This document shows, in pieces, positions 4,105-4,151 of a DNA stretch of 63,018 bases. Position 1 is the first letter of the stretch. Every line of letters begins with the position of its first letter. A program made the translations under genes and the position numbers. Source of the stretch: a virus; UHGV virus genome UHGV-0170870. One strand, 5' to 3'. The notes beneath the pieces were generated by a model. It saw only the letters and a program-made list of their open reading frames with translations, had not been told where the DNA came from and ran no database searches.

Positions 4105-4151
4105 TTGGTGTCTGTGTAATCTCACAGACCTTACAAGTTCGTCAATTAAAT
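4105..4151 (-). promoter_or_regulatory. promoter-like element, class 1 (ATTTAATTGACG-N17-AGATTA)
   Basis: Minus strand ATTTAATTGACGAACTTGTAAGGTCTGTGAGATTACACAGA; -35 overlaps the stop codon of the SNF2 gene; about 20 nt upstream of gene starting at 4091. Confidence 0.5.

Follow-up and report, generated by a model that had tools for sequence, protein, structure and literature searches.

The 63,018-nucleotide virus genome UHGV-0170870 (the whole stretch of DNA analyzed here, called the window) carries at least 16 copies of a 21-bp near-palindrome that we call the core. A preliminary description of this DNA had drawn attention to an 11-mer, ATTTAATTGAC, that recurs four times. The 11-mer is the upstream add-on of a larger, two-part element, and the 21-bp core is the constant unit of that element. 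We propose that the two-part copies are early and middle promoters of the sigma-70 type, read by the host, and that they are overlapped by an operator for a dimeric phage regulator, most likely a repressor of the XRE family. To this proposal, taken as a whole, we assign about an even chance of being correct. The underlying finding is real and coherent, and it is of a familiar kind: ordinary phage control in an unstudied phage.

A 21-bp core with dyad symmetry

The core emerged from searches with pieces of a conserved stretch and then with a position weight matrix (PWM) of 22 columns. Its consensus, drawn from 67 non-redundant copies in 10 lineages, is TGTAAGGTnTGTsACCTnACA. Two 9-bp arms, TGTAAGGTn and nACCTTACA, flank a central TGT that breaks the symmetry. 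At a low cut-off, the PWM returns 29 matches in the window, versus 1–9 per shuffled sequence. The PWM was built from family copies that it then finds, so conservation within its columns is partly circular. Copies selected on the left nine columns alone still show a conserved right half.

The symmetry is a property of the consensus. Specifically, positions 1, 2, 3, 5, and 8 mirror positions 21, 20, 19, 17, and 14, and the arm is weakest at position 4, whose mirror, 18, is also the least conserved. In lineage C (L027 and L103; L numbers designate related contigs throughout), position 6 has changed from G to C or T and its mirror, position 16, from C to A or G, the two changing together. Near the center, G11, T12, and A14 are nearly invariant, while position 13 is mostly G (34 copies) or C (28 copies). 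A CA follows 6–7 nt downstream, at core positions 20–21. We know of no LexA, CRP/FNR, NtcA, or CtrA box with the layout TGTAA-N11-TTACA.

An inverted repeat with 9-nt arms, lying near translation start regions, could act as an RNA hairpin in processing, termination, or translational control, or as a DNA cruciform. The individual copies argue otherwise. Pairing inside them reaches 64.9% of cells versus 67.2% after shuffling, with 492 of 500 shuffles at least as high, and positions 4/18, 6/16, 7/15, and 9/13 pair in only about one-third of copies. No covariation between the arms was found (score 0.081 versus 0.105 shuffled), and Rfam gave no match anywhere in the window. A structural role would, moreover, leave the conserved, unpaired central bases and the upstream TTGAC unexplained, and we regard it as very improbable. 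Symmetry in the consensus without pairing within copies fits a dimeric DNA-binding protein rather than an RNA or DNA hairpin.

Promoter-like features of the two-part element

The 11-mer ATTTAATTGAC occurs exactly at 4141–4151 on the minus strand and at 11263–11273, 15842–15852, and 49364–49374 on the plus strand. The chance level is 0.02 copies, and none of 100 dinucleotide-preserving shuffles reaches four, which bears out the preliminary description's view that four copies are far above chance. A fifth copy, ATTTAGTTGAC, lies at 61749–61759 on the minus strand and has one mismatch. When the five copies are aligned, conservation extends about 40 bases downstream of the 11-mer. Most core copies have no 11-mer; thus, the putative operator and the part composed of the −35 and the A/T-rich stretch are separable.

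Other parts of the preliminary description stand with amendments. Its plus-strand coordinates were each off by one base. An AGAT-type hexamer, said always to follow 17 nt later, is found in three copies (AGATTA, AGATGA, and AGATAG) but not at 15842, which has TTACAG, nor in the fifth copy. The spacer GTAAGG/ATAGG-(T/C)CTGTGAGAT, ascribed to three copies, is exact at 4141 and 49364, whereas the copy at 11263 reads GTAAGGCGCGTGAGAT. The broader idea, a co-regulated promoter set with a shared operator, gains support from the fixed distance between TTGAC and the dyad, from conservation in nine lineages, from placement at gene boundaries, and from co-orientation. However, the AGAT hexamer is not a canonical −10, and the 11-mer marks only part of a family whose core recurs at least 16 times.

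A −35 of the sigma-70 type is present as an exact TTGAC in the 11-mer copies and at 3566–3570 and 14134–14138. Among the 67 copies, T, G, and C stand at core positions −8, −7, and −5, which lie outside the PWM columns, in 63–73%; this pattern corresponds to TTGaC ending 5 nt before the core. The A/T content just upstream of the −35 is 0.54, versus 0.39 further upstream. About one-third of copies have no −35.

The center and right arm of the core vary with the −35. When an exact TTGAC stands at the fixed distance, core positions 11–16 are almost always GTGAGA or GTGACA; without TTGAC, they read GTCACC. An A occupies position 16 in 16 of the 18 copies with TTGAC versus 11 of the 49 without (Fisher 1e-6, with the proviso that orthologous copies are not independent). 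The four copies of the preliminary description and their orthologs make up the first of these sub-types; what follows them is the primase gene, the gene next to SNF2, the Mre11-like gene, or the DUF6456 operon.

If the −35 hexamer is set at core positions −9 to −4, then the TG of positions 10–11 falls where an extended −10 would have its TG, and A14 becomes the −11 A. By Escherichia coli criteria, the −10 is poor. The alphaproteobacterial −10 consensus, known from work on Caulobacter, is TANAWC. The promoter-type copies match this looser hexamer at three of its five specified positions, and A16 and T17 match its A and W. The altered right arm of these copies and their invariant central TG are consistent with a weak −10 superimposed on the operator. 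What the sequences show is the family itself, with its symmetry, placement, conservation, and restriction to one phage clade; we infer both promoter activity and repression.

The mechanism that we favor would operate as follows. The 11-mer would supply an A/T-rich stretch and the TTGAC −35 of early or middle promoters for replication and recombination genes, and the housekeeping RNA polymerase of the host would read these promoters. The operator would begin five bases past TTGAC and cover the spacer and the weak −10 region, such that a dimeric phage regulator bound to it would switch all of the promoters together. That regulator would most likely be the XRE/CI-type repressor encoded at 51533–51946. 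In promoter-type copies, the change of the right arm from sACC to GAGA or GACA would place an A as in an alphaproteobacterial −10. The strongest promoters would be those with both the A/T-rich stretch and TTGAC. At other gene boundaries, operator copies with no −35 would block read-through rather than initiation.

Conservation within one phage clade

The core is found at matching intergenic positions in nine further lineages. There, it precedes the primase gene, the gene that follows SNF2, the Mre11-like gene, the methyltransferase-like/polymerase operon, and the small gene before DUF6456, and it is also present within the lower-G+C minus-strand gene block. Within the core-bearing lineages, identity to the window proteins is 73–89% for SNF2 and 65–83% for DUF6456. 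The relatives were gathered by protein-anchored searches of viral, genome, and metagenome collections (primase, DNA polymerase, and SNF2 alignment), and further ones came from contigs encoding homologs of the DUF6456 protein, the sigma factor, and the XRE protein. A search of viral contigs for the 11-mer plus TGTAAGG gave 23 hits, of which 19 are chance matches in A/T-rich contigs; L006, L009, and L013 are real relatives or the same phage, and the remaining one is L020 (52% G+C).

More than 100 more distant or unrelated loci lack the core, apart from two matches in one A/T-rich contig. Orthologous placement and absence from distant loci together indicate that the motif is specific to one phage clade and under selection. 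The distant relative L166 retains the central CTGTGAG at the primase site, while its core arms are not recognizable. This pattern is as expected if a promoter part, which would have been kept, and an operator part, which would have changed, are separable.

The copies and their placement among genes

The copies in the window are listed here, first those with the 11-mer and then the others.

4115–4151, minus strand: ATTTAATTGAC (4141–4151, with the −35-like TTGAC), 5 nt, core TGTAAGGTCTGTGAGATTACA (4115–4135); top PWM score, 33.6; upstream of the cysteine-dioxygenase-like gene 3567–4091; orthologs at L027 3753, L103 7332, L104 11260, L025 3426, and L164 618.
11263–11299, plus strand: ATTTAATTGAC, 5 nt, core TGTAAGGCGCGTGAGATGACA; a second right-arm-like sequence, CACCTTACG, at 11302–11310; upstream of the primase-helicase gene (open reading frame [ORF] 11299–13758, true start probably about 11400); orthologs in eight other lineages.
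15842–15875, plus strand: ATTTAATTGAC 2 nt from core TGTGAGGAATGGGAGGTTACA (15855–15875); the iteron array precedes it, and a small gene (probable TTG start 15910) and the DUF6456 gene follow; orthologs at L025 11499, L161 9679, L162 9638, L163 9602, and L164 9613.
49364–49409, plus strand: ATTTAATTGAC, 5 nt, core CGATAGGTCTGTGAGATAGCA (49380–49400), extra arm CAGACCTTACA to 49409; after the structural operon and upstream of the Mre11-like phosphoesterase gene 49437–50762.
61727–61759, minus strand: ATTTAGTTGAC (61749–61759), 1 nt, core TGTAAGGTGCGTCAGCTTACA (61727–61747); PWM score 32.4; upstream of an operon for a methyltransferase-like protein, DNA polymerase A, and an ECF sigma factor; ortholog at L036 1320.
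3540–3570, minus strand: TTGAC (3566–3570), 5 nt, core TGTAAGGCGCGTCACCTATCA (3540–3560); upstream of gene 3000–3515; the orthologs at L027 4317 and L103 7896 have no TTGAC.
9421–9441, plus strand: core only, TGTAACCTCCGTCACCTTACA; 7 nt after an 11-bp-stem hairpin (9380–9413); a ribosome-binding site (RBS) directly after it and an ATG at 9456; orthologs in most other lineages.
14134–14170, plus strand: TTGAC (14134–14138) and core-like GGTAAGGTATGTCATCTGACA (14150–14170); after a terminator-like hairpin (14044–14063), with a small gene (ATG 14197) downstream.
17717–17737, plus strand: core-like TGTCAGCAGCGTGACCTGACA; overlaps the stop codon of gene 17182–17730; score 20.6.
22977–22997, minus strand: core-like TGTCGTATGTGTCACCTGACA in the lower-G+C minus-strand gene block; score 18.3; stronger orthologs at L164 16980, L165 18431, L163 15485, and L025 18687.
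First base at 23580, minus strand: a further core copy.
23977–23997, plus strand: variant core CGTGAGAAACGTCACCTAACA, which matches less well (score 15.6); 21 nt before the ATG at 24019, in the first gene of the packaging/structural operon (ORF 23965–24402, first start 23965); its counterparts at L164 17336 and L165 18828 have a conserved block, AGCYATGCGCCTSACG, and the core.
53670–53690, minus strand: half-conserved TGTAAGGTATGATAGGTGACG with TTGCTC 4 nt upstream, reading TTGCTC-16-(TG)-TAGGTG; score 13; upstream of gene 53142–53618.
55275–55295, minus strand: core TGTAAGGTCTGTGATATTACC; overlaps the probable GTG start of an excisionase-like gene that precedes the integrase gene.
57825–57845, minus strand: core only, TGTAAGGATTGTCACCTACCA; the stop codon of the upstream gene at core positions 3–5 and the first ATG of the MazG-domain gene at 21–23.
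1–5 plus 63003–63018, minus strand: core across the window ends, AGTAAGGTCTGTCACCTGACG (5 nt + 16 nt); score 18.3 in a circularized scan; upstream of the single-stranded DNA-annealing protein gene 62315–62974; ortholog at L036 40.
7014–7042, plus strand (tentative): probable early rightward promoter TTGCGT-17-TAGAAC with degenerate core TGCTAGAATCGTCAGGTAGAA (7021–7041); in a divergent region upstream of gene 7106–8323; a better core at the orthologous place, L160 286.

Two further features accompany the copies. The sequence ACCCCCA, often after ACCTAcC, occurs 0–12 nt downstream of several cores and of L025 orthologs; in the window, it is at 3533–3539 and 57816–57822 on the minus strand and at 11311–11317 and 15886–15892 on the plus strand. 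The region 20000–24000, which separates the early plus-strand block from the late one, has lower G+C (0.55–0.59) and holds a block of functionally uncharacterized minus-strand genes. The counterpart of this block in the relatives contains different genes, with strong core copies upstream.

Core copies sit at gene boundaries, and the 25-kb structural operon is essentially free of them. Of 17 copies, 16 run in the direction of the local genes. The one that does not is an ambiguous, palindromic, core-like match at 35754–35783 in the structural operon, beside a terminator-like hairpin; its scores are 18.7 (minus strand) and 14.2 (plus strand). Three copies come directly after hairpins: the terminator-like hairpin 49317–49344 precedes the copy at 49364, the terminator-like hairpin 14044–14063 precedes that at 14134/14150, and the 11-bp stem at 9380–9413 precedes that at 9421. 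L167 and L168 likewise have a hairpin and then a copy ahead of the Mre11-like gene, and this order is also found at L009 11170.

According to the preliminary description, the 11-mer always precedes the first gene of a transcription unit. The analysis does not bear this out; the elements are mostly internal to same-strand gene runs. At 4141, the TGA in TTGAC doubles as the stop codon that ends the SNF2 helicase ORF (4142–5428, minus strand), and the next gene on that strand starts at 4091. Similarly, the copy at 11263 lies within a 44-bp gap between two same-strand genes. Among the 11-mer copies, only that at 49364 directly follows a strong terminator-like hairpin.

In most copies, the core ends 0–45 nt before a start codon, and most lie 15–50 nt before a start codon that bears an RBS. 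So short a distance leaves no room for a promoter downstream; thus, the core is not an upstream activator site and, where a promoter exists, would have to overlap the core promoter itself. Two activator geometries were rejected. A class II arrangement, with the dyad at −41.5, has no room, as the start codon comes 15–30 nt after the core in most copies. MerR-type activation, in which the dyad is centered in an over-long spacer of 19–20 bp, would need the dyad center 4–5 nt further upstream, and the hexamer at 20 nt has no T6.

Several copies are at odds with a simple promoter. At 57845, the upstream stop codon takes up core positions 3–5 and the next ATG takes up 21–23, and the same is true at L027 12690. 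At 55295, a GTG stands at core positions 11–13, and at L027 14908, an ATG stands at 5–7. In the 9421 group, the RBS begins at core positions 22–24. The copies without a −35 look like operator-only sites, and a protein bound there could stop read-through. Because the excisionase-like gene seems to start inside the core, the copy at 55275–55295 may regulate how far transcription reads through into the excisionase and integrase genes and not be their promoter.

Such copies raise the idea that all of them are roadblocks and nothing else, stopping the elongating polymerase in an orientation-dependent manner, with TTGAC being incidental. Mycobacteriophage L5, which has operators as well as orientation-dependent stoperators, is the precedent (PMC9283540). 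Many copies do lie in short intergenic spaces and, with the single exception noted, follow the direction of transcription, and those at 57845, 55295, and 17717 coincide in part with stop or start codons, an implausible location for a promoter. Yet conservation across lineages extends to TTGAC at its fixed 5 nt, to the A/T-rich stretch, and to the change at position 16 that is linked with TTGAC. Moreover, three copies come after terminator-like hairpins, where new initiation is needed, the structural operon has essentially no copies, and the element is a 21-bp dyad rather than an asymmetric 13-mer. We consider a purely roadblock function quite improbable.

Candidate regulators

The window encodes three proteins that could read the core; the promoter proposed for the first is listed with it.

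51533–51946 (alternative start 51464), plus strand: XRE/CI-type helix-turn-helix (HTH) protein, 137 aa from the ATG at 51533, with matches to Pfam HTH_3/HTH_26 and to PHROG repressor families.
51400–51448, plus strand: putative promoter of the XRE/CI-like gene, TTGACA (51419–51424), 18 nt, TATTAC (51443–51448).
58229–58726, minus strand: ECF-type sigma factor gene, Pfam Sigma70_r2 and r4_2.
16245–16889, plus strand: DUF6456 protein gene, with a C-terminal HTH of the sigma-region-4/LuxR type; second candidate reader.

We infer that the favored candidate, the XRE/CI-type protein, is probably the reader of the core. Its homologs are 50–82% identical, with invariant residues through the helix-turn-helix. 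The promoter of its gene is embedded in TGTTAGGT (51400–51407) and ACCTAACA (51424–51431), variants of the core arms that stand 16 nt apart instead of 5. Orthologous XRE genes have consensus-type promoters in L167 and L168 (TTGACA-17-TAGGAT and TTGACA-17/18-TAGAT), and in L168, a full core lies beside the −35 of the XRE-gene promoter. Matches to TALE repeats from a PDB sequence search (E = 5e-15), at 51704–51796 or XRE residues 81–111, are an artifact in which about 15 matches of about 4 bits were summed to one repeat.

The promoter and operator could hold as described while the reader is the DUF6456 protein, which would act as a dimer to repress or time early and middle genes. No small protein of the clade is more conserved than DUF6456; its HTH segment hardly varies among the core-bearing lineages, and one of the four 11-mer copies lies upstream of its gene. 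Against this assignment, L166 encodes a 58%-identical DUF6456 protein but has no recognizable core arms; retention of the protein where the arms are lost argues mildly against DUF6456 as the arm reader. No core-like arms accompany a dedicated promoter of its gene, save for the shared copy at 15855. The structure model is of moderate confidence (pLDDT 70), and dimerization is only presumed. DUF6456 thus strikes us as a rather unlikely reader.

A more radical alternative makes the core a phage-specific promoter element, to which the ECF sigma factor or the DUF6456 protein redirects the host RNA polymerase. GTsA at positions 11–14 would then be an ECF-style −10, transcription would start at the CA at positions 20–21, and TTGAC would be an optional −35. 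The phage encodes both an ECF sigma factor and a conserved protein with a predicted sigma-region-4 fold. The near invariance of G11, T12, and A14, with CA 6–7 nt downstream, suits such a promoter, as does a −10 region that is conserved yet not of the sigma-70 type. If the 9421 group are promoters, an RBS at 22–24 would require a start at or before position 22, and the first ATG of the MazG-domain gene falls at positions 21–23 in both the window and L027. The one canonical host-type promoter belongs to the sigma operon, which could therefore be made first. In phage phiEco32, gp36 provides a precedent, with promoters defined by a single element centered at −11.5 (PMC12276001).

The sigma genes themselves speak against this alternative. 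The ECF sigma gene keeps its place directly after the DNA polymerase gene across relatives, and its product is 51% identical in L036. Between the window and L027 (11795–12334), however, identity has fallen to 19%, whereas neighboring genes remain 70–82% identical and the core is essentially unchanged. Because the sigma factor has diverged while the core has stayed the same, we disfavor it as the reader. The DUF6456 protein shows no sigma region 2, and its profile does not resemble those of ECF sigma factors. Within the element, position 13 is G as often as C, and the two-fold symmetry and the joint arm change in lineage C have no role in a sigma-read promoter. Genes start inside the core at 55295 and L027 14908. 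An ATG at positions 21–23 is found in 2 of about 14 copies, which is near chance; the one at 11299 is not conserved in relatives, and a leaderless start at core position 21 was set aside as weak. Promoters of ECF sigma factors have a −35 to −10 spacing of 16–17 nt. Here, the distance from the C of TTGAC to G11 is 15 nt, or 11–12 nt in two copies, and TTGAC is not a −35 of the AAC type. We judge a sigma-read promoter unlikely.

A T7-like polymerase promoter was rejected as well: no RNA polymerase was found among about 60 ORFs scanned against Pfam, PHROGs, or both, all outside the set of large ORFs in the structural block 27122–48618. It seems doubtful, overall, that the 21-bp element is something other than a plain repressor operator, be it part of a phage sigma-like system with starts at CA and a leaderless message at 57825 or a roadblock network for an XRE dimer.

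A number of observations weigh against a host-type promoter overlapped by an XRE operator. Regarding the promoter, among the 21 copies with a −35 at a fixed distance, A2 and T6 of a sigma-70 −10 occur together in five at a 16-nt spacer and in none at 17–18 nt. A standard sigma-70 scan accepts just one of the five 11-mer copies, at 61753–61725 (TTGACG-17-TACATT), and rejects the other four. The distance from TTGAC to the core also varies, being 5 nt in most copies, 1 nt at 61749, and 2 nt at 15842. Regarding the reader, 21 bp is long for an operator of an XRE/CI-type dimer, and XRE homologs were recovered for two of six full-length relatives (the 69,888- and 64,482-bp contigs), although others may have escaped the search. 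The central TGT lacks symmetry and is aligned with transcription even in copies that have no −35, a feature that a purely symmetric dimer leaves unexplained. Finally, copies across lineages are orthologous rather than independent events, so the consensus and Fisher counts overstate the evidence, and the PWM derives from the same copies that it retrieves.

The phage, its genome, and its host

The window is the complete, circular or circularly permuted genome of a temperate tailed phage of Bradyrhizobium. Specifically, the 12.7-kb contig L013 joins the copies at 4141 and 61749 at a spacing of 5,409 bp, the exact distance across the window ends, which implies that the window is the whole of such a genome. 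Gene-like ORFs were chosen by third-position G+C and scanned against Pfam and PHROGs. The principal genes beyond those already listed are the following.

4142–5428, minus strand: SNF2 helicase.
11299–13758, plus strand: primase-polymerase/helicase.
58731–61067, minus strand: family A DNA polymerase.
53888–55018, minus strand: tyrosine integrase; an excisionase-like protein is also encoded.
50776–51291: lysozyme-like gene, after the structural block.

Exonucleases, a Gp2.5-like annealing protein, and a RuvC-like resolvase add to the replication and recombination genes. A terminase and a long plus-strand ORF block (about 27–49 kb) are read as structural from their position and from the portal, baseplate, and muramidase domains of relatives. 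The XRE gene stands beside the lysis and attachment/integrase region.

The host assignment rests on contigs in sequence collections. Proteins of the phage occur on a 7.57-Mb contig, thus of chromosome size, alongside proteins named for Bradyrhizobium viridifuturi and Bradyrhizobium sp. 17-4, which identifies Bradyrhizobium, an alphaproteobacterium, as the host. The integrase gene and the presence of phage proteins on this contig mark the phage as temperate. A 100% identical phage is present as a 63,072-bp contig in a Streptomyces iakyrus assembly, and the phage is also found in Streptomyces xylophagus and Phycicoccus assemblies. Short partial contigs with phage proteins are labeled E. coli, Klebsiella, Stenotrophomonas, Streptococcus pneumoniae, Aspergillus, and Hammondia (the last UNVERIFIED_CONTAM). 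Bradyrhizobium is a common contaminant of reagents and water. The phage is thus a widespread sequencing contaminant that travels with Bradyrhizobium into unrelated projects. Among sequenced phages, no close relative was found at the DNA level, the only match being one of 263 bp to Bradyrhizobium phage BDU-MI-1, and protein-level relatives are at most 40% identical. A literature search returned nothing on the phage or its motifs.

Other repeats and structures were noted along the genome. An iteron array at 15290–15600 contains, within 290 bp, 15 of the 23 genomic copies of GGAAGGT/ACCTTCC, in blocks of both orientations, and a run of 8-bp repeats resembling GGTCAGGCG follows at 15753–15842. This region probably serves as the replication origin. 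In every related lineage, the corresponding place holds at least 10 repeats, with a repeat sequence that differs between lineages. Kinship between the core half-site GTAAGGT and the iteron GGAAGGT was considered and rejected, as the iteron sequence differs in every lineage and the core does not.

Two leaders contain possible control elements. In the approximately 100-nt leader of the primase-helicase gene, a hairpin with a 14-bp stem (GATCGGCCGTATCT...AGATACGGCCGATC; 11326–11365, plus strand) has a fold z-score of −5.4 and flanks that are conserved in relatives; it may be a leader control element. In the leader of the methyltransferase-like/polymerase/sigma operon (61600–61680, minus strand), a four-codon mini-ORF (ATG CGA AGC GCC TAA) behind a strong RBS is followed by a G+C-rich hairpin with a T run, and the corresponding stretch of L036 (1390–1470) has a five-codon mini-ORF and a hairpin. 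This leader may be an attenuator. In addition, an identical 19-mer, GAAAGGACAAACGCCAATG, composed of an RBS, a spacer, and an ATG, precedes unrelated small genes at 14181–14199 (plus strand) and 23507–23525 (minus strand), with 0.01 expected. Similar translation-start cassettes lie at 7084–7108 and near 22900 (minus strand), and the cassette recurs in relatives.

Significance and relation to known systems

If the proposal is correct, it provides a regulatory map of an unstudied temperate phage of Bradyrhizobium, in which one operator would stand at about 16 gene boundaries, with a handful of strong promoters and few candidate regulators. The core motif plus the 11-mer makes a compact signature for the phage clade and for contaminant contigs. 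For Bradyrhizobium genetics, the promoter/operator pairs could provide a set of repressible expression elements. The system would also add a proteobacterial case to the layout of one repressor and many dispersed sites, which is best known from actinobacteriophages. No new kind of mechanism would be involved unless the sigma-like alternative is true.

The lambdoid CI/Cro immunity system offers one comparison. As in that system, a temperate phage encodes an XRE/HTH_3 protein, the dyad operators, here putative, would overlap the −35 and −10 of lytic promoters, and the host-type promoter of the repressor gene adjoins operator arms. The differences concern layout and form. In the window, the operators occupy at least 16 dispersed sites rather than one immunity region, and the repressor gene lies beside the lysis/integrase region rather than between divergent early promoters. 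Classical lambdoid operators are 14–18 bp long, whereas the operator proposed here is 21 bp with an asymmetric center co-oriented with transcription.

Streptomyces phage phiC31 has near-identical early promoters together with repeated inverted-repeat operators, which are bound by the c repressor and spread through the early region. Its sequences, its host, and its repressor family differ from those considered here.

Phage phiEco32 gp36 resembles the present case in that a phage ECF-like sigma factor is encoded and a promoter family is defined mainly by one element near −10 (PMC12276001). Unlike in phiEco32, the element in the window is a 21-bp dyad with a good TTGAC −35, and the sigma factor is not co-conserved with it.

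The dispersed layout is known from mycobacteriophage L5 (Cluster A), whose gp71 binds asymmetric 13-mer sites as a monomer with two DNA-binding domains (PMC9283540). More than a dozen such sites are spread genome-wide at promoters and in short intergenic spaces, oriented with transcription, and they are also present in the structural arm (PMC9283540). The window likewise has one recognition sequence at more than 12 dispersed, transcription-oriented sites in short intergenic spaces. However, its element is a 21-bp dyad, no sites lie in the structural arm, and the host is a proteobacterium rather than an actinobacterium. The candidate regulator, a 137-aa protein of the XRE type, appears unrelated to gp71: its only family matches are to HTH_3/HTH_26 and to generic repressor PHROGs, although it was not compared directly with Cluster A repressors. 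Most likely, then, the system works like lambdoid CI/operator control in the dispersed layout of L5, and it is not of the L5, ECF, T7, or MerR type.

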